Positions 865 through 20,000 of a DNA stretch of 20,000 bases are shown piece after piece. Every line of letters begins with the position of its first letter. Positions within the stretch are counted from its first letter, which is position 1. Source of the DNA: an uncultured virus (IMG/VR IMGVR_UViG_2851731845_000003) (taxonomy: Duplodnaviria > Heunggongvirae > Uroviricota > Caudoviricetes); the IMG/VR virus record IMGVR_UViG_2851731845_000003; one strand, 5' to 3'. The translations under genes were made by a program, and so were the position numbers. The notes under the pieces were generated by a model. It was not told the DNA's origin, ran no database searches, and saw nothing but the letters and a program-made list of their open reading frames with translations.

Positions 865-1071
865 TTACTTACCTAAAGCAGCTTGAATGGCGTCAGCAAG
901 TTTGCCGACCTCATCAGAGGCGTGCTGCACCTCAATTTTAACTTTACTGACGCCTTGATAGGCAGTGGATGCGCTTACTGATGTTTGAATTACTTCTAGC
1001 GCTGCCTGTACAGCAAGGAGTCTCTTTTTCTGTTCATCGGTGTAATCAATTCCAAAGTAACTTTCTAACAT
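865..1071 (-). CDS. Hypothetical 68-aa moron-like protein
   Basis: ORF with SD AAGGGG, its own downstream terminator and an AT-rich upstream region. Confidence 0.7.
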   Translation of the reverse strand: MLESYFGIDYTDEQKKRLLAVQAALEVIQTSVSASTAYQGVSKVKIEVQHASDEVGKLADAIQAALGK

Positions 1072-1174
1072 TGCAATCCCCTTTTGATAAATAGAACTAT
1101 TAAGTTAGCAGGTGGAATCATCAGCGCTAGTTTTATAGTGGGTATTATTGATAACTCTCAACAAATACCCTTAA

Positions 1175-1360
1175 TTAGGCTCTCACGATATCGACATTCG
1201 TTATCGTCAGCTTACGGATGCGGCGGGTTGCTTCGCGAGAAATGGCGCTCAGATTCTTGGGAGTGGCTTTCACCTTTGCATATTTGCGCAATAGGTTATC
1301 AGTTACCTCGCTAATCTGTTTCTCCGTGGGAGGGATAATGCTTACCTGTAGCTTATGCAT
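1175..1360 (-). CDS. Hypothetical small basic protein
   Basis: 61-aa ORF with TAAGGA SD, immediately after the o-spanin. Confidence 0.55.
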   Translation of the reverse strand: MHKLQVSIIPPTEKQISEVTDNLLRKYAKVKATPKNLSAISREATRRIRKLTITNVDIVRA

Positions 1361-1381
1361 CTGCTGTTCCTTATTTGAGGG

Positions 1382-1642
1382 TTAAGTTTTACTCCCTACT
1401 CTCTGCCGCCAGTCGATAACCTCATCAAGCCGGCCTTTGCAGATTCGTAGTTCTCTCTTTAATTCCATCGCATACAATCCGCCATCCCCCCATGTAATAC
1501 CGGTAAATTCTGGAACTTCACAAGGGGTAAGCGCTGACTCTGGGGGCAATAATAGTGCGGGTTCGGCAACAAGCGGTTTAGCTGGCTTATTCGCGCATGA
1601 CGTTAATGACATCACCAGGCATAGGCTTGATAGAACAATCAT
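1382..1642 (-). CDS. Rz1: o-spanin (Rz1-like lipoprotein)
   Basis: MIVLSSLCLVMSLTS-C lipobox, Pro-rich, overlaps the 3' end of Rz; start reassigned to ATG 1642. Confidence 0.85.
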   Translation of the reverse strand: MIVLSSLCLVMSLTSCANKPAKPLVAEPALLLPPESALTPCEVPEFTGITWGDGGLYAMELKRELRICKGRLDEVIDWRQRVGSKT

Positions 1643-1919
1643 CACTCGCCGCAGCTGCTTTAAACCGTGCAACCTGTAATTCACTGGCATTGCGTAACTT
1701 CCTCTCGTTTTCGAGTTGTCGGGTGGTGGCGGCTCTATTTGCAGAATCATTCACCTGGTATGCATCAATGATGTTTCCCAGAACCGTGTTTGTGTTTTGC
1801 TCTGCTACCAGCTTCGCTTCCGTTTTTTCGACCTTATTTGAGAGGCGGTAATTGTTAAAAAATAGAGCCGACACAATAACCACCAGCACAGCAATGAGTA
1901 TCCCAATGGCTTTATTCAT
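1587..1919 (-). CDS. Rz: i-spanin (Rz-like)
   Basis: N-terminal TM helix plus coiled coil, directly after the endolysin. Confidence 0.85.
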   Translation of the reverse strand: MNKAIGILIAVLVVIVSALFFNNYRLSNKVEKTEAKLVAEQNTNTVLGNIIDAYQVNDSANRAATTRQLENERKLRNASELQVARFKAAAASDDCSIKPMPGDVINVMRE

Positions 1920-2442
1920 CCAGCCCCCAGCATGTCAGCTCGCTTTCTTGCGCTCGGCGTTCTATCTGCCCGTAACAGTTATTTGAGCGAATATTGCAAT
2001 CCTTGCCGCCGTCATATACCCAGCGTTTGATTTCAGCGCATGCACCTTTACGGTCGCCAGCGTTGAGTTTTTTATAGAACGTGGAGGTGAAACACTTGCC
2101 TGGGCCGATGTTATAGGGGCAAAACGAAGCGATACCTGCAATCTGTGGTTCAGTCAGCGGTACCCGGACATTTTTCTTTACCCAGCTTATAGCCTTATCA
2201 GCCTCCAACTGATTCACCGCAGCACACTTATCAGCTGACAGCTTCATCCCTTTCACTACCGGTTTGCCATCAACTTGAGTAGCACCACGGCAAATAGTCC
2301 AAATCCCCTTTCCATCTGGATAAGCTACCAGCCGGTTGCCCTCTTTCTCATCCAAAAGCTGATCAAGAATTATGGTGGCCGGTGCTGCAACAATAATCAG
2401 AGCCAGGACAGCCGCGCTTAATTTGCTTTTTGTCGAGGCCAT
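1912..2442 (-). CDS. SAR endolysin (GH24 lysozyme, phage 21 R-like)
   Basis: Weakly hydrophobic N-terminal SAR segment; EG...YPDGKGIWTICRGAT catalytic E-D-T triad. Confidence 0.95.
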   Translation of the reverse strand: MASTKSKLSAAVLALIIVAAPATIILDQLLDEKEGNRLVAYPDGKGIWTICRGATQVDGKPVVKGMKLSADKCAAVNQLEADKAISWVKKNVRVPLTEPQIAGIASFCPYNIGPGKCFTSTFYKKLNAGDRKGACAEIKRWVYDGGKDCNIRSNNCYGQIERRAQESELTCWGLDE

Positions 2443-2657
2443 TACTCACCATCCGGTTTATAGCCGTGGCGGCGATCCCAAATCTTGACGCCAGCATTAA
2501 GCAAAAATGTCAGGGCCATAAAAAACAAAGAGCCAAGTACGCCGATAACTGTCCACTCATCAGGGGTGAATCCAGCTATCAGCTCTTTAACCCAAAAAAT
2601 GAAACTACCACCCGACACGGTATAGGAGACCGCTGTTGTTATATTGCTCATTTTCAT
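2442..2657 (-). CDS. Holin (pinholin-like, dual start Met-Lys-Met)
   Basis: 71 aa from ATG 2657 (MKMSN), two TM segments, SD GGGGAG, stop overlaps the endolysin start. Confidence 0.88.
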   Translation of the reverse strand: MKMSNITTAVSYTVSGGSFIFWVKELIAGFTPDEWTVIGVLGSLFFMALTFLLNAGVKIWDRRHGYKPDGE

Positions 2658-5714: not shown

Positions 5715-5742
5715 TAAATTGCTCCTGTGACATGTCATATCA

Positions 5743-6928: not shown

Positions 6929-9120
6929 GCCGCCACCCTCCAGATACACAGCTCTGGCATATTCGCCCTTACCAGTGCCTCGGCAAAGGGAGGCGGTACT
7001 GCATTACCACACCTTGCCACCTGCTCAGATTTAGGCCAGATTGTGCCGTCAATATCCCGGTCAATAATGTAATCTGGCGGGAACCCGCTGGCGTTGTACA
7101 GCTCGCGGGCAATCAACATGCGCATGCATATATCAACGATGATGTATTCGCCCACAGATAGATATTGTGGTCGTGGCGCGGGGAATAAATGCCAGTCGTC
7201 CGGTAAATCGCTGAAATGATCCACCAGTCGTGCGCAGTTCCATGCGTTGTAGCGCTGCTTGTCGGTCAGTGGTTCGGCATCAAGATTGCTTTCTACCAAG
7301 CCAAAACGTTCTTTGGTTGTCACAGCATGTATCGGCTCTGATAAATCCACCGCGCCGCCAGTGCCGTAATACTTGGTCAGAAATGCGTTTACCAGTCCGA
7401 CATGATTACCGCCCGCGGTTAAAGTCGGTACCGGTTCGGTGATGGGTTTACCATCGCGACATGTACCACGCAGTTGTACCAGGTGAGATGTACAAAGCGC
7501 ATGGTGATCAACCGTGGTGATGGTGTGTAATGGCTCGTTAATATCGATGCCTGCACCGGTATAATTGCCGCCATAATGTTTTACCAGATGAGCGGCCACC
7601 ATTCCCATTGCATGACCATTACCACCGGGGCGAATCGATGTACCGGCCGTGATAGTCGATAATGGCTCATCACATTGTTGGCCTATAGCGCCGGTCCTAA
7701 ATTTGGTTATATGCGGTGCCAGTATTGCACTGGCTAACTGGCTTTTACCGCCCCCACCCGCCGTAACGGTACCCAGTGGAGTATTGATATCATTTGCCGT
7801 GCTGTTGCCGAACTGACGCACAACCACCGGCGCAGCGATAGCAAAACCATGTGTTCTAGTGATTGTTTGTAACGGGTCACGCAATGATTGCCCACGGAAA
7901 CAATCATATTTGGTTTTAGTGCTGGTGTGGTTGCACTTCACTGCATACGGCTCCAGCAACAAATGCTCAGCCTTGCTGGTGATAGTGGTTAGCGGCTGAT
8001 CTAGCGGATACTGCAGACGGTCGCCACCGAAACCGGTTTGGCCCAACCTCACAATAAATGGATCAGGGTTATCGATAACAAAGCGTTGCAGCCCTTTGAC
8101 GATGCGCCGCAAGGTATTATCAGCCAAATCCTTTTTGCGACCGAAAATAGAGCGTGTTGGCTGGCTCCAGTCGATACACTCGGCCGCCGTGCGCCAAGGT
8201 TGCAACATGCCAGAAAGCACATCTGCAGAGTTTGGTGCGCCGTGGCTTGGCTCTGGCCATACAACCGACTCGCCGTCACAACGCCCAACCACAAACAACC
8301 GCTTTCTGATAGTGGGTGTACCGTAATCACAGGCTTTTAGCTCCCGGTGATCCACGTTATACCCCAACCCCGAAACCAGTTTCACCGCCTCAGGACTATT
8401 GATATCTATCTTCAAGAATTCACATACTTCTGCTAGTGCCGGGTGATTGCCATCAATACCGGTACCTAGCATGCCAATAAACGCCTTGAACGTTTCACCT
8501 TTACGGGCTGGATCAGGTCGGTGATTACCCTCACTATCCGTTAACAATGGCCCCCAGCCGCGAAACTCTTCGACATTTTCCAGCATCAGAAAACGTGGGC
8601 GAACTGCCAGCGCCCAGCGTAATACCACCCAGGCTAAACCACGAATTTCTTTCTTAACTGGCGTGCCACCCTTAGCTTTGGAGAAATGGCGGCAATCAGG
8701 ACTGAACCAGCCAAGCAATACCGGCAGACCGCCGGTAGATATCAGCGGGTCGACACTGAAAATATCCTCAGGATAATGCAACGTTCGCGGGTGATTAATG
8801 GCATGCATCGCCATGGCTACCGGATTATGGTTCATCGCGATGTGTGGTTCATAGCCTAATGCTTGCTTGATTCCCTCGCAGCTCCCACCGCCACCAGCGA
8901 ACCCAACGACAACCAGACCATCCTGCAAATCAGGTCGTGCAACTGTAATTTCTTTGCGCCGCGCCCATGCATGAGCCGCCTTTTGAATGTTGCGCGGATC
9001 TTCCCGCGTCAAAAACATTTCGTTCATCTTGGCCAGTAGCTGCTGTTGCTCTGACTCACTCATTGGGTGAACAGGAATGACTGACGAGGCGCATTGCTGA
9101 ACTTCAGTAGGCCAGATCAT
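6925..9120 (-). CDS. DNA cytosine-5 methyltransferase with an expanded variable region
   Basis: FAGGGG (I), SPDC (IV), ENV (VI), RKRLF (VIII) and GNAV (X) motifs. Confidence 0.93.
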   Translation of the reverse strand: MIWPTEVQQCASSVIPVHPMSESEQQQLLAKMNEMFLTREDPRNIQKAAHAWARRKEITVARPDLQDGLVVVGFAGGGGSCEGIKQALGYEPHIAMNHNPVAMAMHAINHPRTLHYPEDIFSVDPLISTGGLPVLLGWFSPDCRHFSKAKGGTPVKKEIRGLAWVVLRWALAVRPRFLMLENVEEFRGWGPLLTDSEGNHRPDPARKGETFKAFIGMLGTGIDGNHPALAEVCEFLKIDINSPEAVKLVSGLGYNVDHRELKACDYGTPTIRKRLFVVGRCDGESVVWPEPSHGAPNSADVLSGMLQPWRTAAECIDWSQPTRSIFGRKKDLADNTLRRIVKGLQRFVIDNPDPFIVRLGQTGFGGDRLQYPLDQPLTTITSKAEHLLLEPYAVKCNHTSTKTKYDCFRGQSLRDPLQTITRTHGFAIAAPVVVRQFGNSTANDINTPLGTVTAGGGGKSQLASAILAPHITKFRTGAIGQQCDEPLSTITAGTSIRPGGNGHAMGMVAAHLVKHYGGNYTGAGIDINEPLHTITTVDHHALCTSHLVQLRGTCRDGKPITEPVPTLTAGGNHVGLVNAFLTKYYGTGGAVDLSEPIHAVTTKERFGLVESNLDAEPLTDKQRYNAWNCARLVDHFSDLPDDWHLFPAPRPQYLSVGEYIIVDICMRMLIARELYNASGFPPDYIIDRDIDGTIWPKSEQVARCGNAVPPPFAEALVRANMPELCIWRVAA

Positions 9121-9623
9121 TGCGCCCCCTCACGTAGTCTTGCTGCGAAATCAAGAATATTGGAAATCTCGCCTGTATCTGCCATTACACCAACGTCAAA
9201 AGCTTGTACGTGACGGTGCTGCGCAAATTTTTCAACACCCCCCGCCTCCACATCATTAAGAGCCAGAATGGTTGCAGGGACACTAATTACTTCGTATAGC
9301 GCCTCAAATGCATCTTCTTCATAGTCGCCACATGAAGAGATGCCATCTACCGTATTCAGATGCCCCCTGTTGTAACCGGCGTTATATACATGGACGCAGG
9401 CTTGTTGGAGTGCTGCGTTCTCGGCAACAATCACATTATATTTCCCCTGCCACTCCAAACACTCCCGCTCGTAGTGCTTTGCTGTGCGCCGGTTCTTATT
9501 AGCTGATGCCACCAACTCCGCTATACGGTCAGCGATGCCGTTTAACACCTCACTTTCACGTGGTTCCACTCTTTCCGCTGCTGAACGAATTGCAGCAATC
9601 ATGCCATCGGTTGATATATTCAT
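9117..9623 (-). CDS. Hypothetical coiled-coil protein (Ead/Ea22-like)
   Basis: AENAALQ coiled-coil and FAARLREG C-terminal patterns. Confidence 0.65.
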   Translation of the reverse strand: MNISTDGMIAAIRSAAERVEPRESEVLNGIADRIAELVASANKNRRTAKHYERECLEWQGKYNVIVAENAALQQACVHVYNAGYNRGHLNTVDGISSCGDYEEDAFEALYEVISVPATILALNDVEAGGVEKFAQHRHVQAFDVGVMADTGEISNILDFAARLREGAQ

Positions 9624-9871
9624 TTGGTCTCGCCTCTGTGGTCTCTGCGGTCACGCCAGTAATTTAAGCGCTCTTTAAAAAACTCTCGGTAATGCACCGG
9701 TACCCGTTCAATCGCTTCAAGTACATGAGCGCGGTTGGTCCTGCGCTCGTACAGGTTTTTGATTAAGCCGCTGGCTCTCAAATCAAGATTTAGCTTTTCT
9801 TGGTATTCCTGAGGCCAGAGGCAAATGTTGTACGGGAGTCCGGGCGGGAGATAATCCGATTGCCCGGTCAT
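9620..9871 (-). CDS. Hypothetical protein
   Basis: 83-aa ORF with GGGGAG SD; stop overlaps the next start. Confidence 0.7.
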   Translation of the reverse strand: MTGQSDYLPPGLPYNICLWPQEYQEKLNLDLRASGLIKNLYERRTNRAHVLEAIERVPVHYREFFKERLNYWRDRRDHRGETK

Positions 9872-9875
9872 GGTA

Positions 9876-10256
9876 TTAACTCCCCATGCCTACCGTGCTC
9901 ATCAGTTGATTTATCCGAGATACTCGCAAGCAGTACGCCAGCTCCTTGTCATCAAATGGCATTCTGGCGGGCTTGGTTCGGGGTTCGCTTTTGTTGCGTT
10001 TTACTTGCGTGTCAGAGAATCGGAAAAAATCCTCTGAGATACTGTTGAGGGTGTATTGAGTCTTTCGACCATTGCGGCGGGTAATGTCTGCGTGGGGTGA
10101 TCGAACCATACCCTGTACTCGGTAGCGCAAAACGCTAATCGGCATTTCAGCATTAGGAAATTTTAAAGTAATAGCCTCGATAATCTGGCTGTAGTTCATG
10201 CTTTGGCCCAGCATAACCGCTGCCAATTCACGGGTAGTTAGTTCACGTTTTTTCAT
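9876..10256 (-). CDS. Hypothetical protein, possibly winged-helix
   Basis: 126-aa ORF after dnaB, preceded by AGAGGCAAGACC. Confidence 0.75.
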   Translation of the reverse strand: MKKRELTTRELAAVMLGQSMNYSQIIEAITLKFPNAEMPISVLRYRVQGMVRSPHADITRRNGRKTQYTLNSISEDFFRFSDTQVKRNKSEPRTKPARMPFDDKELAYCLRVSRINQLMSTVGMGS

Positions 10257-10300
10257 GGTCTTGCCTCTTTTTTGGTTACTTAAACGCTGGTCAGGCGCGG

Positions 10301-11674
10301 TTAAAATTTTGGTGTTGAATAGTGTTTTTCTTTGGCCGGTGGCCTTGATGCCTCTTTTGCCATTCGGCTGGCTTCTTTTGCCACCAGTTGATCCACCGGT
10401 AGAAAGTGGCCGTTTTTAAATTCCTGATAAACGGTACCAGGCTCGCCAAATCGGTTTTTGGTTACTATGGCCTCAGCAAATCTTGCTGCCGGACTATCTG
10501 CGTTATAAACCGCTTCTCGATACAGCATGATGATGCTGTCGGCGTCCTGCTCGATTGAACCTGAGTCCCTGAGGTCGGAACTGATTGGCCTGCGGCTACC
10601 TGGTGGCCGTTCATCCACTTTTCGCGACAACTGGCTTAGTGCAAAAATCGGGGTGTTTATCCGACCGGCCAGCGTTTTTAATCCGCGTGAAATTATTCCG
10701 ATCGACAGGTCATTACGCTCCGCCTTTGGTTTCGTAATCAGGCCAAGGTAATCAACCATCACCATTCTCAGTTTCGGGTACCGGCGCTTGTGCGTTTCTG
10801 CGATAGCCCGTATCTGATCGATGGTTAGCTCACTGGCATCAACGATCCAAATATCACGACCATTCAATGCCTGTAGCGCGGAGTTAATACGCGCCCAGTC
10901 CTCATCACATAACGTTTTAGGGTCGCGTAATTTAGACACTGGCAAGTTACCAGCACCGGCAACGGAACGCTCAACCATCTGTAGGGAGGCCATTTCCATA
11001 CTGAATATCAGCGCACCACCGCCGTTCTGTGTAGCACCCTCAACAATCTTTAATGCAAACTCAGTCTTACCCATCCCCGGACGCCCAGCGATGACAACCA
11101 AGTCCTGAGGGTTAAAACCGCCCGTTATTGCATCCAGCTCGACAATGCCGCTTTGCAGGTTCATCGACTCAATCTCACCATTCATGCGCTTATCGAGCAT
11201 ATCCATGTAGTTGGGTAACAAATCGTTCAGATGTACGGGGATGATGCCGCCGCTGTCTGCCGTCATATCGATCAGTTGTGTTACCGCACCCTGTATTACC
11301 TGATCGCGCTGTTCCTGATTGTTAGCCCCTCGGATGCCGTCAGCAGCGGTCTGGAATAATGCGGTCATGGTTCGGCTATACCAGGTCTTACGGGCATGTG
11401 CGGCATATCCTTTCAGATTCGCTACGTTTCCCGGCATACGGACGATTTCAGACAGAGTGGCCAGACTACTGCCGCCCAATGCCTCACTGACAAACAGGAC
11501 ATCGATCAACCCTTTAGTCAGTGCCTGCTTTTTAATTTCCGCATACGCAGAACGGTATATTCTTATGCTGAATGCTTCCTCTGGCAGTGTGGCAATCACC
11601 TCCAGTGCATCGGGGGTAGAACCGCCATAAAGCAGACCAGATAAAATTGCTGCTTCCAATTCTTGAGGCTTCAT
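10301..11674 (-). CDS. dnaB: Replicative DNA helicase, DnaB family
   Basis: GRPGMGKT Walker A, FSMEM, VDYLGL, LSQLSR, DLRDSGSIEQDAD, KNRFG. Confidence 0.97.
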   Translation of the reverse strand: MKPQELEAAILSGLLYGGSTPDALEVIATLPEEAFSIRIYRSAYAEIKKQALTKGLIDVLFVSEALGGSSLATLSEIVRMPGNVANLKGYAAHARKTWYSRTMTALFQTAADGIRGANNQEQRDQVIQGAVTQLIDMTADSGGIIPVHLNDLLPNYMDMLDKRMNGEIESMNLQSGIVELDAITGGFNPQDLVVIAGRPGMGKTEFALKIVEGATQNGGGALIFSMEMASLQMVERSVAGAGNLPVSKLRDPKTLCDEDWARINSALQALNGRDIWIVDASELTIDQIRAIAETHKRRYPKLRMVMVDYLGLITKPKAERNDLSIGIISRGLKTLAGRINTPIFALSQLSRKVDERPPGSRRPISSDLRDSGSIEQDADSIIMLYREAVYNADSPAARFAEAIVTKNRFGEPGTVYQEFKNGHFLPVDQLVAKEASRMAKEASRPPAKEKHYSTPKF

Positions 11675-12717
11675 AGCGCACCATCACGGGTTTTTCTTAA
11701 GACTTCCGGTTTCATCAGATAATCAAAGTTTGCCCGCCAGCCTGCCCCATCATCACCACCGAAATAAAACACGGTTGCCTGTCCGCGAAAGGCTTCGAAG
11801 TAGCTCTGGAACGCTTCAAGGTCTTTGGTTTTGAGGTATTGGAGTAATTCGCGGATGGCGTGTTTACGGTCCTGATCGATTTCAGCCGGTGGCAAAACAT
11901 CGCTGAATACAAGGTTATACGCAGTAATGACCTCATCGCAATCAATCCGCCCAGCAGACTCAGACCATGCACGGGCATCAGCCAGATAACCATCGAACCG
12001 GTTTACACGGCAGATATTCGCAGGTTTGGCATACTTGCCGTTGCGGGGTTTCCAGGTATTTACTACCCAGAGGGCCACTAATTTCAAATCAGCCAGCGCG
12101 TAGGCTTTGCGTGATTTCGTTGCCGTCAGCAAGGTTTCGAATGGGCTAGAATCTTCACACCGGGTATGGGTGAGTTCGTTGTAATACGCCAAAGCCCTTT
12201 CAGCGTCAGCGAGAGTATTTTCGGTTTCCCCTTGAGGGGTAAGGGGTGTTTTATTCTTTGTAGTATTCTTTGTAGTATTCTCTTGTAACATTTGGTCATT
12301 CTGACTAGATGTGATCTTGTCATTCTGACCTGCTCCCAATTGGTCATTTTGACCAGATGCATTTGTAGAATTAAGCAACTCCAATTGGTCATAATTTATC
12401 GAATACCACTTAGTGCGGTTATAGGGATCACTGAGCAACACTTTATGTAACTGACCAACTGAAATTAGTTTCATTTCCAGCAGGTTTGCCAACGTGCGTT
12501 TAATCGTACTATCAGACCAAAAGCCTAATTCATCGGCCCATTCAGCCGCCGATTTATAAAACCACTTCCGGCCTTCATGACGGTGATCCGACCGACATAG
12601 CCAATAATGAATTTGCTGAACGAGTATGGCTTCATTGAGGCCAATCTCTTTTGCAAGCGAGGGTAGTACTTGCAGCGGAGGTTCATTAATTAACAGCTTG
12701 GCGCTATTCATCTTCAA
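11671..12717 (-). CDS. Phage replication initiator (O-like)
   Basis: N-terminal wHTH (LLINEPPL..GLNEAIL.QQIHYW), internal iterons, C-terminal WRANFDYLMKP; upstream of DnaB. Confidence 0.88.
   Translation of the reverse strand: MKMNSAKLLINEPPLQVLPSLAKEIGLNEAILVQQIHYWLCRSDHRHEGRKWFYKSAAEWADELGFWSDSTIKRTLANLLEMKLISVGQLHKVLLSDPYNRTKWYSINYDQLELLNSTNASGQNDQLGAGQNDKITSSQNDQMLQENTTKNTTKNKTPLTPQGETENTLADAERALAYYNELTHTRCEDSSPFETLLTATKSRKAYALADLKLVALWVVNTWKPRNGKYAKPANICRVNRFDGYLADARAWSESAGRIDCDEVITAYNLVFSDVLPPAEIDQDRKHAIRELLQYLKTKDLEAFQSYFEAFRGQATVFYFGGDDGAGWRANFDYLMKPEVLRKTRDGAL
12252..12391. repeat. Replication origin: iterons plus AT-rich 12-mers
   Basis: GTCATT(C/T)TGAC at 12295, 12319 and 12343 (24-bp period), half copy at 12388; TATTCTTTGTAG x2 plus one variant at 12252-12287. 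Confidence 0.85.
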
Positions 12718-12938
12718 ACCCCCAGCGCTTCCGCTATTTGCCGACAGGCAGACTGATAATCGTCAGCTGATAGGTTCATCAGGCGCAGGTCTGCTTTCTT
12801 CTGCTCGTACTGTTCCCACACGCTATATGCGGCAACCTGACGCCCTGCAAAAATTGGCTCTATGTCAGCTATGCTTGCCGGTTGCCCGTTCAGCCGGAAC
12901 CCGTTGCAGTAGGTAATTTTATCGATAGATGTAAGCAT
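12714..12938 (-). CDS. Hypothetical protein
   Basis: 74-aa ORF preceded by AGAGGCAAGACCA; stop overlaps the initiator start. Confidence 0.75.
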   Translation of the reverse strand: MLTSIDKITYCNGFRLNGQPASIADIEPIFAGRQVAAYSVWEQYEQKKADLRLMNLSADDYQSACRQIAEALGV

Positions 12939-12954
12939 TGGTCTTGCCTCTGTT

Positions 12955-13419
12955 TTATACGGTGGTCAGCCGGTGGTGTTGTGGTCTGATTGCGTGAAGT
13001 GCCGCAACAGCGCCCGATATTCTTTGTGACATGTCACAGCCATCTAATAGAACAGCGCTAATTGCTGCGGCAAACTCTCTGCTGGCAATCGAAACCAAAT
13101 AATTAACGGTCTCGCCATTTACTCTGGCCCGCCGTTCTGCTGGGAGCGCCGCTTTAAGTACCGGTGATAATTCCAAGACCTTTCGCATTGATGCTTTTGA
13201 ATCCCCGCGCAACCAACGGAATAACTGCTGCCGGTTGTTGTTGATAGACTTCCAATCAGCGTTGCCCTCCTCGTCTTCAATGGGAGTGAGGCGTACTGAA
13301 TCCGTACTGATATTAAGCAAGAAAAACATTCTGCTGATCTCGATAGCTACATGCTCCTGCCCCCGTTCTGCTGCCCACGCCTGTACTTCAGCTTTAAGGG
13401 CGTTAACTTGTTGTTCCAC
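12955..13419 (-). CDS. CII-equivalent, YdaT family
   Basis: GTG start, AGGAG SD, follows cro; WAAERGQEHVAIEI..NRQQLFRWL pattern; TTGATT-N6-AATCA sites nearby. Confidence 0.8.
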   Translation of the reverse strand: MEQQVNALKAEVQAWAAERGQEHVAIEISRMFFLLNISTDSVRLTPIEDEEGNADWKSINNNRQQLFRWLRGDSKASMRKVLELSPVLKAALPAERRARVNGETVNYLVSIASREFAAAISAVLLDGCDMSQRISGAVAALHAIRPQHHRLTTV

Positions 13420-13442
13420 GTTGCGTCTCCTGTCGCAGGAAA

Positions 13443-13486
13443 TTGATTATTGATAATCAGATTTTAAAAGTGGGTTTGGTTAAGCT
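13443..13486 (+). promoter_or_regulatory. pRE-like CII/YdaT-activated promoter
   Basis: TTGATT-ATTGAT-AATCA, 21 nt, then TAAGCT, pointing toward cI. Confidence 0.7.
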
Positions 13487-13665
13487 GCGCTCTGATACAT
13501 CGATGGGTCATATTTCAATTCGCCATGAGTAATGCGTTCAATCTTCATTGCTTGTTTCTCAGGGATAATTTCCCCCCAGCGACAAACTGCCGGGTGTTTT
13601 ATTCCTAAGGCCATCGCGGTATTTACTACACCGCCAAAAAACTTGACTACCTCTTTCTTGTTCAT
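13480..13665 (-). CDS. cro: Cro-like repressor
   Basis: 61 aa from ATG 13665, GAGGAG SD, HTH (FGGVVNTAMALGIKHPAVCRW), divergent from cI. Confidence 0.9.
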   Translation of the reverse strand: MNKKEVVKFFGGVVNTAMALGIKHPAVCRWGEIIPEKQAMKIERITHGELKYDPSMYQSAA

Positions 13666-13691
13666 AGGGACTCCTCTTTGATCATAAAGCG

Positions 13692-13758
13692 AAGGTAACA
13701 AAAGGTACATAACAATGCAAACACTTTTCACCACACTATCGCGTAACATTGGTTACAT
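13692..13758. promoter_or_regulatory. OR region: pR and operators
   Basis: pR on minus strand TTGCAT(13720-15)-17-TACCTT(13697-92); operators AGGTAACAAAAGGTACAT 13693-13710 and GCGTAACATTGGTTACAT 13741-13758. Confidence 0.8.
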
Positions 13759-14419
13759 GAAAACTGAAATGAATGACCGCATCCGTATTCGCAGACTGCA
13801 ACTGGATCTCACTCAAGTCCAATTAGCCAAGGCTATTGGAGTGAGTCGAGTATCAGTTACGAAATGGGAGTCAGGGATAACCAAACCAGATGGAGAGAAT
13901 CTTCACCGACTGGCGCAAGTACTTTCATGTACGCCAGAATGGTTACTCTATGGTACCGGGGATTTACGCCAGGTTGATGATACAAAAATCAAGCCTCTCA
14001 CCGCCGTGCCTAATGCCATACCTGTTATTTCATCAGTTCAAGCAGGCACTTGGACTGATACATATTCAGCGGCCCGAATTTCTGATGTTCTTAGATGGTG
14101 TACTACCACAGTGAAGGTTTCTGAAAACGCTTTTGCCTTAGATGTTCGTGGTGAGTCGATGACAAACCCCAATGGGTCACCTTCTATACCTGAAGGTTCT
14201 ACAGTCATCGTCGAGCCTAACTATGGTTCTATTGAAGATTTATACGGCAAGATAGTGGTGGCCATTATTGATGGTAGTTCCGAGGCCACAATTAAAAAGC
14301 TAGTCGTCGATGGACCTAATAAATATCTCATGCCATTAAACCCTAACTTTAGACCGATCGAAATCAACGGCAATTGCCGTATTCTCGGTAGAGTAGTACA
14401 GGTCACCCAAGACCTGTAA
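13757..14419 (+). CDS. cI: CI repressor (HTH + S24 peptidase)
   Basis: HTH LTQVQLAKAIGVSRVSVTKWE; A-G cleavage site VQAG; catalytic GESM and TIKKL; likely start ATG 13757. Confidence 0.95.
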   Translation: MKTEMNDRIRIRRLQLDLTQVQLAKAIGVSRVSVTKWESGITKPDGENLHRLAQVLSCTPEWLLYGTGDLRQVDDTKIKPLTAVPNAIPVISSVQAGTWTDTYSAARISDVLRWCTTTVKVSENAFALDVRGESMTNPNGSPSIPEGSTVIVEPNYGSIEDLYGKIVVAIIDGSSEATIKKLVVDGPNKYLMPLNPNFRPIEINGNCRILGRVVQVTQDL

Positions 14420-14424
14420 TCAAT

Positions 14425-14449
14425 AGCCCATCACCTCGGTGGGTTTTCT
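14425..14449 (+). terminator. Terminator after cI
   Basis: GCCCATC-ACCTC-GGTGGGT then TTTCTT. Confidence 0.65.
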
Positions 14450-14460
14450 TACGCCCTTAA

Positions 14461-14514
14461 ATGTAACTTATGGAACATCTATCTATTGACATGGTAGGTA
14501 ACTATAGGTACATT
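14461..14514 (+). promoter_or_regulatory. pL promoter with two OL operators
   Basis: TTGACA(14486-91)-17-TACATT(14509-14); operators ATGTAACTTATGGAACAT 14461-78 and AGGTAACTATAGGTACAT 14496-14513. Confidence 0.88.
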
Positions 14515-14600
14515 CACGATATCAACACGGCACAGCAGCCGATAAGCAGTTTAGGTTTAGTACGTTCTGGCAGCCGGGAAGACGGCAAAAGAGGAAGGTT

Positions 14601-14753
14601 ATGAAAGCAACTAAAAAGAAAACGAGTAAATTCCAGATCCAATATCGCTACTGTGGAATGTGGGCTAACGGAAATACTTACTCAACGCGCAAAGAAGCTG
14701 ATGATTACGCACGTAATACTGGCCGTGATTATCAAGTAGTCAAAGTACGGTAA
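14601..14753 (+). CDS. Small basic hypothetical protein (50 aa), first pL gene
   Basis: Below the ORF-track cutoff; SD GAGGAAGG; MKATKKKTSKFQIQYRYCGMWANGNTYSTRKEADDYARNTGRDYQVVKVR. Confidence 0.7.
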   Translation: MKATKKKTSKFQIQYRYCGMWANGNTYSTRKEADDYARNTGRDYQVVKVR

Positions 14754-14924
14754 CAACAGAATTTGGGTTGTTGCATTGGAGGAGAACCCCGCGCCAAGGC
14801 TCGGCATGATTACCACAGTGCAGCAGCCCAAACCAATAACGTAGCCACGACGGGAAAGTGTGGTGAGGCAAGACCAAAGATCTGACCCGCTGGCCCGGCG
14901 TAATGGGCACCAAATTACAGACGT

Positions 14925-15042
14925 AAAAAAACCCACCTAAGTGGGCTTCTTTACCCCGGGTCACCGACCAAAGTTAACCGGGAAGCTAACGGGGACCAAC
15001 CCGTTAACAGAGGCAAGACCAACGGCTTACGCCATCAATCTT
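14925..15042 (-). ncRNA. Putative ~118-nt sRNA with UUGGUC loops, complementary to the repeated RBS motif
   Basis: Extended -10 TGATATACT (15057-49); 5' stem with GUAA tetraloop; two UUGGUC-loop hairpins; terminator GCCCAC-TTAG-GTGGG plus U7. Confidence 0.65.
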
Positions 15043-15066
15043 AAAAACAGTATATCAGGAGTTGCT

Positions 15067-15402
15067 ATGACAGCACTACAGATAACCACCCAGCTATACA
15101 TCCATGTAAATCCGCATTCAACAATGAAAGCTAACCGCTTTATTGTGAGTACCTGTGACATGTCACAATCAACACCAGCATATGCGTTACTTGAAACCCG
15201 CGAAATCACTATCGCTTTCGACGAACCCGATCCATTTGAAATCATCAGTAAGCAGGTTGATTCACTACGCGCTCAAAAAGAGCGGCTGGCGGCTGAATCA
15301 TATCGGCATCAGTTGCTAATTGATGATCAGATTCAGGCATTGCTATGCATCGAGCACAGTACTCCATCGAACGTATCTGATGATACCGAAATTCCTTTTT
15401 AA
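15067..15402 (+). CDS. Hypothetical protein (111 aa)
   Basis: CAGGAG SD before ATG 15067; ends in an acidic DDTEIPF tail. Confidence 0.75.
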   Translation: MTALQITTQLYIHVNPHSTMKANRFIVSTCDMSQSTPAYALLETREITIAFDEPDPFEIISKQVDSLRAQKERLAAESYRHQLLIDDQIQALLCIEHSTPSNVSDDTEIPF

Positions 15403-15457
15403 TTAGTCATACATCAAAGACCAAGATCCGTTTAAAAACCAAAGAGGCAAGACCAAC

Positions 15458-17656
15458 ATGACTGTATTTATTTGTTTATTCGAGCCGAAAAAAGCGGCTC
15501 TCAAAAATGGGGCTATACCACTGGTTATAGCTCTGGAAGCCATAAATAAGAAAATGGCATCCGCACTGGCCATCGGGAAATTATGGGAAGCCTACCCCGC
15601 TGCCGGTGATAACTTTGCTGATCCGAAAATCTGTGAGGATACTGTCGGGCAACCGCGCCCTGCTGTGGGTGATTTCGATGAGCAGTTCGCACAGGATAAT
15701 ACCTTTGATGGCAAAGTATGGACGCCAAATACCGTGGCATCGCCAGAGGATGAGGATGATAACGACGGCGACGAACAAGGCGATGATTCTGGCTTGGTGA
15801 ACTACGCCAAGTTGGGCATTGATGTCAAAGTTGGCAAGATCCTAATGTATGGCTTGCGTGACATTGGTACACACGAACTATCACTAGTGTATGACCTGAT
15901 TAACGACGACGAGGGTGATGCTGGGCTGCGTTCAATTATAACGGCGTTGGCTGGTATACCGGCTGTAGGCGCAATGTATCAGGAGTCGGTCAAAGAACTG
16001 GTCGACGCCATTAATGTGAAGTTTCCTAAGACCCCTCAATTTCCTGAAGTACAGAAGTTTGCCCAAAAATGGGTTGATGAACCCAATAAGCGGGACGAGT
16101 TAACTGGAACGAAGAAAGTTACCCGTATAAACACACCCACGCCTGATGCGCCAATTAAACGCGGCTTTGACCACACCTATAAAACGCTTGATCTCGAAGT
16201 CGCCCTCGCCTTGGTACCCACTGTTTTGAACTGTTGGGAAATCTACTCAGCAGAAATGAGGCAGGCAAAAGAGCTGATGGATAGCAATGATGATGCCTGG
16301 CGCAAGTGGTCTACCGAATTGCGCGTTCGCAGCGATGCGTTGTCTATTCCGCGTGAAACCATCTTTGAGATGATCCGCGCGGGTAAAGAAAAACCTATCT
16401 TCCTAACCGATGCCGCAGCCAGGAAAGAATTTATCTCACAATATTTAGCCGTTAAAGGCCCACAGCCCGCAGTTAAAAATCTAGGCGACGGCAAGTTCTC
16501 TATTGATGGTCTGGTCGGTGGTGAACAGCCAGCGGCAAACAGTGAAACAAAACTGGCATTGGTTGCCAATTCTGGGCCAGAAACTGAAACAAAACCGCCA
16601 ATTGTTGCAACAGAACAGGAAAACCCTTCACAGGAACCTATCTCCGATAATGCCGCTCAACAGGCTAAAGAGACATTGGATAAGTTGGGTTACAGCGTTT
16701 ATGCCTCAACTGATGAGAAGCCAGCAGAGATAATTGAGACGGCACAGCAAAATGACGTTGCTACCGTAGCGGTTACGGCTGATGAGTTCCAACACCGCGC
16801 CGGGTTGATTGAGCAAGAGATTGCGCAGAAATCCCCTGCGGAGCAAGAAAACCTGCATATCTGGAAATCAGTACAACGCACAGATCCACGCTTTACCAAA
16901 CCTGTAGAGGGTGCGGGATATGTAGCTACAAGCATTAACGCTGAATATATGTTTATGCGAGCCACCGAAGTATTCGGCCCAGTTGGTGAGGGTTGGGGCT
17001 ATACCATTCTTGAAGAAAAGATGCTTTCAGGCGCGCCAATGTCCGAGGCTATTTACGACGATAACAAGAAATATGTTGGTAACCGGCTTATTCGTGATGC
17101 CGATGGCACATTGATATGCGAACAAAATCACTCGATCAAAATTCAATTCTGGTACTCAGTCGAGGGTGATGTGCGTGGCGAGATCGAAAGTTACGGAGCC
17201 ACCCCTTACATGTATAAAACCAATAAAGGAATTAAGGCAGATAGCGAGGTAATCAAAAAGAGCCTCACTGACGCCATTAAGAAAGCATTATCTATGCTGG
17301 GCTTTAGCGCCGACGTATGGCTCGGCATGCACGATAACCCCGAGTATAAAGCAGAAAATGACATTGAGTTTGCTATCAAGAACGCCAGTGAAAAAGCTGG
17401 TGACTCAGTTCGTCTGCGCAAAGAACTGGATGAGAAGTTAACCAAAGTAGGCAATACCATTACGAGCGCCGTCACCACCAACGAAGTGAACAAGGTTTAT
17501 AGCACCATTGCGCGTGAAGTTGATGTACATCGCAAAGATGCCGAAGCCAAAGCCGATCACGAACACGCCAATTACCTCAAAACCCGCCTGCTTGCGTTAC
17601 ACCGCTTAACTGAAAAACGGGTTGCTGAACTTACCGCACAGGAGCCGACATTATGA
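15458..17656 (+). CDS. RecE-like N-terminal region fused to a Rad52/Sak-like annealing domain
   Basis: C-terminus TDPRFTK..INAEYMFMRATEVFGPVGEGWGY..KKSLTDAIKKALSMLGFSADV; N-terminus and LDLEVALAL block resemble prophage exoVIII N-regions. Confidence 0.7.
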   Translation: MTVFICLFEPKKAALKNGAIPLVIALEAINKKMASALAIGKLWEAYPAAGDNFADPKICEDTVGQPRPAVGDFDEQFAQDNTFDGKVWTPNTVASPEDEDDNDGDEQGDDSGLVNYAKLGIDVKVGKILMYGLRDIGTHELSLVYDLINDDEGDAGLRSIITALAGIPAVGAMYQESVKELVDAINVKFPKTPQFPEVQKFAQKWVDEPNKRDELTGTKKVTRINTPTPDAPIKRGFDHTYKTLDLEVALALVPTVLNCWEIYSAEMRQAKELMDSNDDAWRKWSTELRVRSDALSIPRETIFEMIRAGKEKPIFLTDAAARKEFISQYLAVKGPQPAVKNLGDGKFSIDGLVGGEQPAANSETKLALVANSGPETETKPPIVATEQENPSQEPISDNAAQQAKETLDKLGYSVYASTDEKPAEIIETAQQNDVATVAVTADEFQHRAGLIEQEIAQKSPAEQENLHIWKSVQRTDPRFTKPVEGAGYVATSINAEYMFMRATEVFGPVGEGWGYTILEEKMLSGAPMSEAIYDDNKKYVGNRLIRDADGTLICEQNHSIKIQFWYSVEGDVRGEIESYGATPYMYKTNKGIKADSEVIKKSLTDAIKKALSMLGFSADVWLGMHDNPEYKAENDIEFAIKNASEKAGDSVRLRKELDEKLTKVGNTITSAVTTNEVNKVYSTIAREVDVHRKDAEAKADHEHANYLKTRLLALHRLTEKRVAELTAQEPTL

Positions 17657-18153
17657 GCAATACAGCAATCGCATTAGCCGCAGACCTTTTCAAACTGCAA
17701 CAGTTGGTTGAGTCCTCAGAGGAACTCACGCCAGAAATGATCGCCGATACGCTTGAGGGGTTAGAGGGTGCCCTGGGGGATAAGCTGGATGCAACCTACG
17801 TCTTTGTTCGCAATCTTGAAGGGCAAGCAAAGACCTGTGATGAAGAAGCGAAGCGCCTAGCTGATCGTAAGCGATCGTTCGAGAACCGGGCAAAGTCGAT
17901 CAAGCAGTATGTGCTTAGCTGTTTACTGGCTGCTGATATGAACACATTGAAAACGCCGTATAACACATTCACCGCTCGTAAAGGTGTGGCTAATGTGGTC
18001 ATCGATAACGAGGATTTGTTGCCAAGTGAACTGGTAACGGTACAGACCATCGTAGCGCCGGATAAAAAGGCCATCAAAGAAGCCATAGAAAATGGCGTTG
18101 ATGTTAAAGGTGCGCATATCGAAATAGGTAGTCGTAGCCTGCAAGTTCGATAA
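17653..18153 (+). CDS. Siphovirus Gp157 family protein
   Basis: DTLEGL..K..coiled coil..PDKKAIKEAIENG.DVKGAH..SLQVR. Confidence 0.88.
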   Translation: MSNTAIALAADLFKLQQLVESSEELTPEMIADTLEGLEGALGDKLDATYVFVRNLEGQAKTCDEEAKRLADRKRSFENRAKSIKQYVLSCLLAADMNTLKTPYNTFTARKGVANVVIDNEDLLPSELVTVQTIVAPDKKAIKEAIENGVDVKGAHIEIGSRSLQVR

Positions 18154-18197
18154 TTTATCCAGCCCCGGACCAACGGGGCATTATTGAGGCAAGACCA

Positions 18198-18371
18198 ATG
18201 CTAAGAAAGACACAAAAGCGGCACGAACTGGCCTATATAACACTCCCAGACGGAAGAACGGGAACCATCCACACCGATCGCCGCTGTGATGTTCACTATG
18301 ATTTTCCAACTGATGTGCGCATTAGTAGCACACCACCGCAGCCAACCGCTGAAAAGGAGGCCAGGCAATGA
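18198..18371 (+). CDS. 57-aa protein, possible divergent CsrA/RsmA fold
   Basis: Below the ORF-track cutoff; MLRKTQKRHELAYITLPDGRTGTIHTDRRCDVHYDFPTDVRISSTPPQPTAEKEARQ; SD GAGG. Confidence 0.65.
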   Translation: MLRKTQKRHELAYITLPDGRTGTIHTDRRCDVHYDFPTDVRISSTPPQPTAEKEARQ

Positions 18372-18523
18372 TCCGTTCTCAACTGGCCGTGTTCTTTATC
18401 ACAGCAGGAGCAGCCTTAACTCTAATTTATGGGGCTGAGGTCAGCGCTGTAGCCGCGTTTTCATTTGGTACCGGTTTGGCTGTGGGGTGCTGGAGGCGTA
18501 GAAAAGTACCAACCAAAAGTTGA
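18368..18523 (+). CDS. 51-aa membrane protein with two hydrophobic segments
   Basis: SD AAGGAGG, ATGA overlap; MIRSQLAVFFITAGAALTLIYGAEVSAVAAFSFGTGLAVGCWRRRKVPTKS. Confidence 0.7.
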   Translation: MIRSQLAVFFITAGAALTLIYGAEVSAVAAFSFGTGLAVGCWRRRKVPTKS

Positions 18524-18563
18524 TTTTGCTTAATCAGAAATAATCAAGCTGCCGCGCTAGCAT
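18520..18563 (+). promoter_or_regulatory. pI-like CII/YdaT-activated promoter
   Basis: TTGATT-TTGCTT-AATCA, 21 nt, then TAGCAT; same geometry as the 13443 site. Confidence 0.7.
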
Positions 18564-18593
18564 GATGGTAAACCAACACCAGGGAAAACCATC

Positions 18594-18800
18594 ATGCAGC
18601 AATGGCAACCAGGCAAGCGTCTATTGACCGACTTCGATATTAAGATCGGTAAATTATCAGCCAGCGTACGAAAGCAGCAACTCACCGACCAAGATATACA
18701 GCGGGCCTGTTCTGCGACCGACAGAGCAATAACCCAAATGATACAGGGGCAAGACCATGAAAAACGACCACGACATAATCACCAAAGAGGAGATGATTGA
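18594..18800 (+). CDS. Hypothetical protein
   Basis: 68-aa ORF with AGGGA SD, overlaps the xis start. Confidence 0.6.
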   Translation: MQQWQPGKRLLTDFDIKIGKLSASVRKQQLTDQDIQRACSATDRAITQMIQGQDHEKRPRHNHQRGDD

Positions 18801-18990
18801 GCTGACCGGGTATCATATCCCTTCAAAGCAATGTGAAGCACTTAAAAATGCTGGGATATTTTTTATAATCCGTAGAGATGGCCGTCCGCAAACTACATGG
18901 GGCCATTTTCAAGATCCCCTATCTCTTCGTCATACCCCCAAAGCAGCGACTGAAATATCTGTTGAGCCTAACTTCGGAGCATTAGATTAA
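18757..18990 (+). CDS. xis: Excisionase-like protein (DUF4224)
   Basis: ITKEEMIELTGY...QCEALKNAGIFF..RRDGRP; directly before the integrase. Confidence 0.82.
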   Translation: MKNDHDIITKEEMIELTGYHIPSKQCEALKNAGIFFIIRRDGRPQTTWGHFQDPLSLRHTPKAATEISVEPNFGALD

Positions 18991-20000
18991 TGGGGAGAAA
19001 ACGCAGTAACCCACAAGACAACTGGATGCCTCCACGAACATGCAGGGGGCGTTCTGCATTTGAATTTAAGCCTAAGCTCGGGGGAACGATAAGGCTCTGC
19101 GGATTCGATGCCAGTCCGGCCCAAGTATGGGCAGCGTATGAGGCGTTAATAAATGATAAACAGAATGAAAATGTCTTTAATTGGCTTGTTAGTCGATTCT
19201 TTCTATCTGCCGATTTTATAGAGCTAGCTGTTGAGACACAGAAAGATTATCGGAAATATGCGGTAAAAGTATTATCTGTTTTCGGCGAGGTCCATCCAGA
19301 TGCAATAAAACCTGAGCATATTCGCAAGTATATGGATAAGCGTGGCGTAAAAAGTCGCACTCAGGCTAATAGGGAAAAAGCCTTTACATCCCGTGTCTTT
19401 CGATGGGCCTATGAGAGAGGGATGGTGAAAATGAACCCATGCAAAGGCGTGAAGCAATTTAAAGAAACCAGCCGTACACGTTATATAACCAATAAAGAAT
19501 ACGATGCGCTTTATCAAGTTTCCCCGCCAGTAGTTCAGGTCGCAATGGAACTGGCATATTTATGCTGTGCACGACAAGCCGATATTTTAGGCATGAAGAA
19601 GAACCAACTAATTGATGATGGGATCTTAATACAACAAAGTAAAACGGGTATTTCTCAAATCAAAGCATGGGGACCGCGTTTAACCGCAGTTATAAAGCTC
19701 GCCAGTCAACTACCGTTAAACAGAGGAATGAGCAGCATCTTTGTTATCCACCAACAATCCGGTGCCAGATATACAAGAGATGGTTTTAATAGCCGATGGC
19801 TGAAAGCCAAAGCGGAGGCAAAAGAGAAGTATCCAGAATTAGAGTTTAATTTCACTTTTCACGATTTGAAGGCAAAAGGAATCTCTGATTTAAGCGGATC
19901 GCTTTACGAAAAACAGGCGATATCAGGACACAAGAATGCAGCTCAAACAGCACGATATGATCGTAAAATTGCGATAGTGCCAGCGGTAGGAGACCAGTAA
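18990..20000 (+). CDS. int: Tyrosine recombinase (phage integrase)
   Basis: CCARQADIL (R), FHDLKAK, SGHKN, TARYDR (Y); stop at 19998-20000. Confidence 0.95.
   Translation: MGRKRSNPQDNWMPPRTCRGRSAFEFKPKLGGTIRLCGFDASPAQVWAAYEALINDKQNENVFNWLVSRFFLSADFIELAVETQKDYRKYAVKVLSVFGEVHPDAIKPEHIRKYMDKRGVKSRTQANREKAFTSRVFRWAYERGMVKMNPCKGVKQFKETSRTRYITNKEYDALYQVSPPVVQVAMELAYLCCARQADILGMKKNQLIDDGILIQQSKTGISQIKAWGPRLTAVIKLASQLPLNRGMSSIFVIHQQSGARYTRDGFNSRWLKAKAEAKEKYPELEFNFTFHDLKAKGISDLSGSLYEKQAISGHKNAAQTARYDRKIAIVPAVGDQ

Follow-up and report, generated by a model that had tools for sequence, protein, structure and literature searches.

A ribosome-binding-site tag on the early genes of an Enterobacterales phage family and a candidate IsrB-family antisense RNA that may read it

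The early genes of an uncultured Caudoviricetes virus (IMG/VR record IMGVR_UViG_2851731845_000003; the 20,000-nt stretch of it that we analysed is called the window) share a short word, GAGGCAAGACC, placed directly in front of their start codons and hereafter called the tag. The exact complement of this tag lies within a predicted small RNA (sRNA) gene of the IsrB family, on the opposite strand of the leader of one of two divergent early operons. The tag is real, phage-specific and restricted to early genes, and it is very probably read by a phage-specific trans factor instead of being merely a good ribosome-binding site (RBS). As to what reads it, we lean, though not strongly, towards the IsrB-family sRNA, which as judged from sequence would pair across the Shine-Dalgarno sequence and the AUG of each tagged cistron and so repress its translation.

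Allowing up to one mismatch, we observed eight copies of the tag in the window, compared with a mean of 0.29 in dinucleotide-preserving shuffles, none of which (0/200) reached eight. All eight copies are sense to local transcription, lying on the plus strand in the cI-to-int arm and on the minus strand in the cro-to-DnaB arm (Table 1). Six end 0-3 nt 5' of the ATG of a real open reading frame (ORF), and two are without an ATG. A Shine-Dalgarno core (GAGG) is contained in the tag, 7-10 nt from the AUG. The original prediction, made from the same letters, had listed these eight sites, and reading of the sequence confirmed all of their coordinates; the comparison with background that it proposed gave the excess above within the window and a phage-contig-specific distribution in the whole genome. 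Its observation that the tag is not found before cI, cro, the cII-like gene and int also held, and there is no copy elsewhere on the phage contig (C2) beyond the early region.

In the whole genome, the degenerate form GRGGCRAGACC gave 15 matches, with eight on the 41,687-bp contig C2, all within the window's early region, and the other seven on the 4.9-Mb chromosome. The exact 11-mer occurs three times in these 4.9 Mb, which is about chance level. Two chromosomal copies that precede an ATG (L002 and L004) were rejected as real targets, their ORFs having only 11 and 15 codons, and were attributed to chance. Another of the seven, at a chromosome contig end (L007), is a duplicate of the xis site and a letter-for-letter repeat of window positions 18700-18790. 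Window positions 1-2618 lie off the 41.7-kb contig C2, and the phage may be present twice in the assembly, once as a contig of its own that is possibly circular and once at the chromosome contig end.

A scan of IMG/VR for the tag followed by ATG returned at least 181 stretches, the flanked loci of which were merged into 50 contigs, 25 of them with three or more copies. These 25 contigs and the window (26 sources) contained 164 tag sites. The tag stood before the start codon of an ORF of at least 30 aa at 114 of the 164, and these ORFs formed 17 protein clusters, at least ten of which were recurrent; the remaining 50 sites, leader copies included, fell below the 30-aa cut. The most widespread tagged cluster was the exonuclease (22 of the 26 sources), followed by a 74-aa protein (21), a 57-aa protein (17), a 101-104-aa protein (10) and a xis-like protein (9), with further recurrent clusters tagged in 8, 7, 7, 3 and 3 sources. 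The 11-mer and its 0-3 nt spacing to the ATG are invariant, although both flanks are unalignable between lineages, and this bears out the proposal in the original prediction that the tag is constrained beyond what Shine-Dalgarno function requires. Exonuclease proteins encoded behind the tag have diverged by up to about one change per site.

Pectobacterium phage ZF40 is syntenic with the window and has the tag before xis, gp05, the exonuclease gene, gp13, gp16 and gp18 as well as in its leader. A megablast of window positions 9000-19000 against phage records gave no match. A separate scan with the 74-aa protein, taking one genome per species, gave 33 loci from Yersinia, Symbiopectobacterium, Serratia, Pectobacterium, Enterobacter, Providencia, Proteus, Rosenbergiella, Edaphovirga, Photorhabdus and Xenorhabdus, and 32 of the 33 carry the tag. 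The leader copies that lack an ATG in the window are conserved in relatives. The leader tag of the Providencia and Proteus lineages (L036, L226-L233 and relatives) is followed by an ATG and a four-codon ORF (MINH-stop); other lineages have unrelated short ORFs at this position, and the window has no ORF there (AACGG). In a related contig with 17 differences from the window, a C>T change at 15023 creates an ATG after the leader tag. The ATG of the leader copy looks like part of a pairing surface and not of a conserved peptide.

The leader of the plus-strand operon, which follows a PL-like promoter, contains on its minus strand a match to the Rfam family isrB (RF01386; window 15012-14926, model positions 1-87 of 87) scoring 34.8 bits (E 0.0052), 0.2 bits under the Rfam gathering score of 35. 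Scores in relatives ranged from 28.5 to 46 bits, with 96 for the Salmonella-type locus, and no second good isrB copy was found elsewhere in the genome. The window RNA is predicted to be a divergent IsrB-family member within 0.2 bits of the threshold and in the same context, being encoded on the opposite strand to the exonuclease gene that starts at 15458 and between that gene and its upstream neighbour, as IsrB is. The predicted RNA of about 117 nt would run from a 5' hairpin through the complement of the tag (the anti-tag) and two further hairpins, H3 and H2, to a terminator. The terminator with its A7/T7 run, H2, H3, the tag copy and the 5' hairpin are kept in all lineages, as is a -10-like hexamer 6-8 nt upstream of the 5' hairpin (TATACT in the window; TAAAAT, TATATT or TATAAT elsewhere).

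We collected 44 distinct homologues of the sRNA. The H2 loop (TTTGGTC) was invariant in 35 of 35 sequences, and so was the anti-tag apart from its allele position. For the minus strand RNAalifold predicted 30 pairs, of which 10 show compensatory changes, at -28.59 kcal/mol, compared with 10 pairs at -3.31 kcal/mol for the mirror (opposite-strand) sequences. The ratio of G.U to A.C combinations in the stems favoured the minus strand for H2 (28:3) and for the terminator (11:0), and the T-run lies 3' of the stem on this strand. On the basis of these counts, the RNAalifold result and the T-run position, we assign the structure to the minus strand. In the 5' hairpin, which covaries (RNAalifold), a GAUCAGUGA-like sequence is paired with the anti-tag's 5' half, and this argues that the RNA under selection reaches across the anti-tag. 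The minimum free energy (MFE) fold of the sRNA leaves UUGCCUCUGUU unpaired, and the 3' half of the anti-tag is unpaired in the predicted fold with a probability of about 0.8-0.9.

The sRNA is predicted to pair more strongly with the tagged starts than with other starts. Duplexes were computed with the 39-nt 5' part of the sRNA, the full-length RNA giving meaningless long-range pairings, and ranged from -25.4 to -36.0 kcal/mol for the six tagged starts against -8.4 to -21.7 kcal/mol for 19 other starts. Contiguous complementarity at tagged starts was 13-17 nt, and 15-16 nt at three ribosome-binding sites of a Rosenbergiella prophage.

The tag and the sRNA gene also change together between lineages. 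Of the 33 loci, 26 have only GAGGCAAGACC (C-type, 2-9 copies) and six have only GAGGAAAGACC (A-type, 5-6 copies), with no mixed locus and one having neither. The copy in the sRNA gene was of the same allele as the tags in all 31 loci in which it was determined (by pattern in 30, by direct reading in L222); a further isrB match, in L242, is outside these 31. In a quick exonuclease tree of 30 rows, built without L217, L222, L235, L240 and L242 (no usable ORF), all A-type rows fall to the same side of one branch (SH-aLRT 93; long branches call for caution), so that one C/A switch suffices. A second difference is seen at position 1, where in Serratia rubidaea a T is common to the leader copy and two of the four targets; the targets in Enterobacter are without this T. 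The sole locus without the sRNA is a prophage remnant in Edaphovirga cremea (L235, 8391-10222), and its single tag has decayed to GAGGCAAGATC. This remnant keeps the 74-aa and replication genes, has tRNA genes in place of the PL arm and gave no isrB match. Salmonella-type and other enteric IsrB loci have no anti-tag, and their 20-kb surroundings held neither a repeated RBS word nor 12 nt or more of trans complementarity.

We propose that GAGGCAAGACC(A)(A)AUG is a common address on the early mRNAs for the phage-encoded IsrB-family RNA. This RNA would be transcribed from the minus strand within the PL leader, from about 15041 to 14925, starting at the extended -10 promoter and ending at the U7 terminator. 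Its pairing would cover the Shine-Dalgarno sequence, the spacer and the AUG at most sites and so block 30S binding, with the accessible UUGCCUC(UG), complementary to the Shine-Dalgarno sequence, as the probable toehold. Replication, recombination and excision could in this way all be damped by a single RNA that spares cI, cro and the cII-like gene. Leaky early transcripts would be silenced by the sRNA during lysogeny. Induction would make the PL leader abundant, and with its perfectly complementary site and its additional copy of the tag this leader would titrate the sRNA, whose promoter would also be occluded by convergent transcription from PL; the PL leader may then be both a cis target and a titrating sponge. 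The original prediction of a translational regulon tied to an sRNA is partly supported, in that it fits the constraint on the tag, the complementary IsrB-like RNA gene, the joint lineage change and the enrichment of GACCA loops described below; the production of the sRNA, its 5' end, pairing in vivo, an effect on translation and titration by the leader we infer.

Several points weigh against repression by this sRNA. Besides the Rfam score just below the gathering threshold, the strand test was ambiguous for H3 (G.U to A.C 9:7), and the 5' half of the anti-tag is paired in the conserved, G.U-rich 5' hairpin (mean unpaired probability 0.42). When the 5' ends of Salmonella IsrB were transferred by length from the terminator, they fell inside or after the anti-tag, although this transfer is weakened by the different 5' part and own -10 of the Salmonella RNA. 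The changes that tag and sRNA share go back to one or two evolutionary events and not many, the C/A switch is a transversion pair without a wobble intermediate, and in L222 the leader copy has T at position 1 and the targets have G. The uniformity of the tag within a genome could come from gene conversion. In favour of a link between tag and sRNA, targets resemble their own leader outside the core more than the leaders of other lineages (position -1 match 0.67 vs 0.36), and of 2000 permutations each, 18 (left flank), 63 (right flank) and 9 (allele position) reached the observed value (131 contexts from 17 lineages, with four sources dropped for a wrong leader call), but this statistic ignores relatedness. 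The leader copy at 14865 lies outside the sRNA gene, and sRNA repression leaves its role unexplained.

The original prediction had further noted GACCA copies upstream of most tags, some of them in loops. All six tagged starts have GACCA, and the elements it listed read as described; a strong predicted hairpin was found only at 18162-79. Upstream GACCA is also enriched across the family. Within 60 nt upstream, GACCA was present in 86 of 216 unique target contexts and at 101 of 1682 other ORF starts of the same loci, GACCA in a small hairpin loop in 61 of 216 and 45 of 1682, and CYGACCA in 58 of 216 and 20 of 1682, respectively, counts that overstate independence because the target contexts are homologous. 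The reverse complement TGGTC was found in none of the 216 targets and at 91 of 1661 other starts. The CUGACCA element and the H2 loop UGGUCGG have seven possible pairs, one of them G.U. Contacts of the sRNA loops with the upstream (C)(U)GACCA loops of some targets might make binding faster. The same hexamer as in the GACCAA and UUGGUC loops occurs in DNA form inside the O-like gene, where three iteron-like inverted repeats (TTGGTCA-N3-TGACCA) lie at window positions 12292-12356; this may be chance or may connect origin binding with the RNA motif.

Table 1. Tag copies, predicted sRNA elements, upstream GACCA elements and neighbouring early features of the window.
Feature	Position	Strand	Context or basis
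Tag GAGGCAAGACC+AAC	15444..15457	+	before ATG 15458 of the 732-aa exonuclease/annealase gene
Tag + A	18186..18197	+	before ATG 18198 of the 57-aa gene (phrog_2482)
Variant tag GGGGCAAGACC	18746..18756	+	abuts xis ATG 18757; inside upstream 68-aa ORF
Tag + A	12939..12950	-	before ATG 12938 of the 74-aa gene (phrog_2465), head of the O-like/DnaB block
Tag	10257..10267	-	abuts ATG 10256 of the 126-aa gene
Variant tag GAGGCGAGACC+AA	9624..9636	-	before ATG 9623 of the 168-aa gene; inside 3' end of the theta (HolE-like) gene
ATG-less tag copy 1	14865..14877	+	in the PL leader but not in the sRNA gene; may be a further binding or titration site for the sRNA
ATG-less tag copy 2	15010..15022	+	PL leader; complement is the anti-tag (seed) of the predicted sRNA
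Predicted IsrB-family sRNA, ~117 nt	14925..15041 (5' end 15041, predicted)	-	Rfam isrB, MFE fold, RNAalifold
sRNA 5' hairpin	15041-15016	-	MFE fold, RNAalifold
Anti-tag UUGGUCUUGCCUC, exact tag complement	15022-15010	-	sequence
Hairpin H3, loop UUGGUC	15008-14985	-	fold
Hairpin H2, loop CUUUGGUCGG	14983-14954	-	fold, alignment to isrB model
Terminator with U7 tail	14952-14925	-	fold
Predicted extended -10 (TG-A-TATACT) of the sRNA promoter	15049..15057	-	read from the sequence; missed by a two-hexamer consensus scan
Hairpin GCCCCG-GACCAA-CGGGGC	18162..18179	+	GACCAA loop 6 nt upstream of the 18186 tag
Mini-hairpin CGG-CUGACCA-CCG	12960..12972	-	upstream of the 12950 tag
Mini-hairpin CGC-CUGACCA-GCG	10285..10297	-	upstream of the 10267 tag; element recurs in relatives
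GACCAA	15419..15424	+	before the 15444 tag; outside any predicted loop
PL-like promoter (TTGACA-17-TACATT)	14486..14514	+	promoter scan; transcript would include the leader tag copies
cI	13715-14419	+	Pfam/PHROG scans
cro	13480-13665	-	Pfam/PHROG scans

Scans of the window with Pfam and PHROG revealed a lambdoid early region, in which a cII/YdaT-like gene is also among the immunity genes. The minus arm consists of the tagged 74-aa gene, an O-like initiator gene, DnaB, the tagged 126-aa gene, a homologue of theta (HolE), the tagged 168-aa gene and two methyltransferase genes. The plus arm begins with the PL-like promoter, a 50-aa ORF, a roughly 300-nt leader holding both ATG-less copies, and a 111-aa gene, and continues with the tagged 732-aa exonuclease/annealase gene, a Gam-like gene, the tagged 57-aa gene, the tagged xis and int. 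Untagged genes downstream of tagged ones begin at ATGA, TAATG or 2-4-nt junctions, and the tag therefore heads each translationally coupled block (74-aa gene, O and DnaB; 126-aa gene, theta, 168-aa gene and methylase; exonuclease and gam; 57-aa and 51-aa genes; xis and int).

In the 732-aa early protein (15458-17656), an N-terminal part resembling exonuclease VIII is fused to a C-terminal part with matches to Rad52-like annealing proteins of Pseudomonas and Vibrio phages, and the gene after it is Gp157/Gam-like. The DNA polymerase III theta (HolE) homologue is phage-encoded (window 9620-9871), and the variant tag of the gene that follows lies within the 3' end of the theta gene. A 14-bp perfect palindrome, TGTGACATGTCACA, was observed at window positions 13025-13038 and 15154-15167 (both exact) and at 5726-5739 (one mismatch), three copies compared with 0.01 expected. 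It is among the most repeated words in related prophages, lies just upstream of the tagged 57-aa gene in the Proteus lineage, and may be the operator of a DNA-binding protein.

Other readers of the tag, and other reasons for its presence, have to be weighed against the sRNA. The tag and the upstream GACCA loops might together form the operator of a phage RNA-binding protein, a repressor like T4 RegA or a dimer like CsrA, with the leader copies as extra or decoy sites and the overlap with the sRNA incidental; we consider this quite unlikely. CsrA targets have a two-part layout, a loop motif and the same motif between the Shine-Dalgarno sequence and the AUG, which the loop-plus-tag arrangement resembles, and GACCA loops are enriched about 10-fold upstream of tagged starts. 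A candidate for such a protein, named in the original prediction as an alternative to the sRNA, would be the product of the 57-aa gene starting at 18198, itself tagged and conserved in 17 of the 26 sources, whose model has five short strands and whose Atlas feature match to a CsrA-containing cluster (0.82) is a lead only and no verdict. Of the small early ORFs, this is the one that our search for RNA-binding families covered. However, none of 19 members of its family matched Pfam at E up to 10, a profile search of the PDB matched only adhesin repeats, Foldseek gave no match at E 0.001 or better, and the best VIA Z of 4.1 was no clear match. The 74-aa protein persists in the Edaphovirga remnant without an intact tag. 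A protein operator also leaves unexplained why an sRNA gene contains the exact tag complement with the matching allele, and why a conserved structure lies on the antisense strand. Antitermination of the nut/boxB type is unlikely, there being at least six sites per genome, all at ribosome-binding sites, and a conserved structure on the opposite strand.

Because the tagged starts are module boundaries too, the tag may still mark cassette junctions, which the original prediction had set against a regulon. As a linker or boundary patch it would serve module swaps by the recombinase, with uniformity within a genome kept by gene conversion. Similarity between relatives does end at the tag, with different genes following at comparable places, the phage encodes an exonuclease/annealase and a Gam-like protein, and each genome has one allele for all copies. 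We nevertheless regard this explanation as very unlikely given the strict sense orientation and fixed 0-3 nt to the ATG, the tag copies inside upstream coding sequence (the theta 3' end and the 68-aa ORF), the absence of the tag from the equally mosaic late region, a core of only 11-17 nt, the enrichment of GACCA and depletion of TGGTC upstream of tags, and the decay of the tag where the sRNA was lost (L235). A linker role may coexist with sRNA regulation. To the simplest explanation, that the tag is merely an efficient phage RBS (a Shine-Dalgarno sequence and favourable spacer, perhaps with extra 30S contacts) copied along with genes and without a dedicated regulator, we give hardly any credence, even though GAGG lies at a suitable 7-10 nt from the AUG, all copies are sense and six of the eight are start-associated. 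Host genes do not use the tag, and none of the exact copies checked among the three in 4.9 Mb heads a real ORF. In addition, seven positions outside the Shine-Dalgarno sequence are invariant across hosts from Yersinia to Xenorhabdus, and the ATG-less leader copies are conserved. The concerted C/A and position-1 alleles have no ribosomal rationale, because 16S tails are conserved.

Repression of tagged cistrons by the IsrB-family sRNA could also have a role between phages. The tag and the sRNA might form a second, RNA-based specificity system layered on repressor immunity, in which the RNA of a resident prophage silences the replication, recombination and excision genes of phages with the same tag; this we consider unlikely. 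The silenced transcripts would then be the prophage's own leaky ones together with those of incoming or co-resident heteroimmune relatives. C-type and A-type would be two groups born by escape, in which a lineage re-tags all of its early cistrons to follow its sRNA. Two prophages of the same allele, each with its own sRNA, were found in one genome in Symbiopectobacterium (L217/L219) and in Xenorhabdus (L244/L247). The sRNAs of such coexisting prophages are expected to cross-react, and co-residence in these two genomes argues against strict mutual exclusion. If the specificity reading is true, orphan IsrB-type sRNAs and the start-associated sequences of other phages would share an explanation.

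The hypothesis that one antisense RNA controls the early cistrons of a phage through a common RBS address is directly testable with the matched allele pairs that occur in nature, in which sRNA and tags are either both C-type or both A-type. If it is true, the lysis-lysogeny decision of a widespread group of Enterobacterales prophages would have an additional, post-transcriptional layer, and the system would provide a compact, orthogonal tag-and-sRNA pair for co-regulating many genes. In the main texts searched, which came from outside subscription journals, neither the tag nor a connection between it and IsrB is described. The words Shine, ribosom, motif, sRNA and intergenic do not occur in the ZF40 genome paper, and searches with the strings GGCAAGACC and GAGGCAAGACC returned unrelated primer matches only.

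Several known systems resemble parts of this arrangement. Lambda OOP, P22 sar and P1/P7 c4 are short, structured, terminator-ended RNAs from the early or immunity region that pair with phage mRNA, and c4 acts outside its own gene. They share with the window RNA the character of a phage antisense RNA at ribosome-binding sites; however, each of them concerns one gene or operon, whereas the target here is present on at least six cistrons of two divergent operons. T4 RegA and CsrA/CsrB provide cases in which many mRNAs share an operator overlapping the RBS, with a possible decoy RNA carrying repeated motifs. The regulator there is a protein, and here we find a complementary RNA and, in the search made with the 57-aa protein, no RNA-binding family. 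Lambdoid boundary or linker sequences are conserved patches at module junctions that need neither a given orientation nor a set distance to a start. The window tag lies at junctions too, but the linker concept does not predict its constant sense orientation and its spacing of 0-3 nt to the ATG.

The closest relatives of the predicted RNA are IsrB-1 and IsrB-2 of the Salmonella prophages Gifsy-1 and Gifsy-2, expressed RNAs of 88 or 94 nt that lie antisense beside sbcA (PMC2330248; 10.1101/787010), in an sbcA/STM1010 layout of '<- -> <-' (PMC2330248). The portions of these two sources available to us (PMC2330248; 10.1101/787010) report no function or target of Salmonella IsrB. The window RNA is likewise antisense in a leader next to a gene of the exoVIII/sbcA type, and the H2 loop CUUUGGUCGG, the terminator and a full-length model match are in common. 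In contrast, the Salmonella RNA is without the 5' anti-tag and its prophage without a repeated RBS word.

The tag itself is best compared with SAS and ESAS, the start-associated sequences of Cluster K mycobacteriophages, of which SAS is a 13-bp asymmetric repeat with a Shine-Dalgarno-like core and conserved non-pairing positions (PMC3203893). According to the parts of that paper available to us, SAS lies in one orientation just upstream of the start codons of many unrelated genes and is absent from the host, and a subset has an upstream inverted repeat; its authors left open whether the reader is a host or phage RNA or protein, and doubted that the inverted repeats form mRNA hairpins (PMC3203893). 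The window tag is similarly in one orientation, a few nucleotides before many starts, and rare in the host. Its sequence differs from the SAS consensus (5'-GGGATAGGAGCCC), and its hosts are Enterobacterales and not those of actinobacteriophages, which makes it an analogue and not a member. In addition, SAS is spread over the genome and the portions of its description available to us report no complementary RNA gene, whereas the window tag is early-only and accompanied by a complementary sRNA gene. In the light of these comparisons, the proposed system would be a base-pairing sRNA regulon of a known general kind that differs in being phage-internal and addressed by a uniform RBS tag. Between IsrB, an orphan among prophage sRNAs since 2008, and start-associated sequences, without a known reader since 2011, the locus described here offers a hypothetical link.

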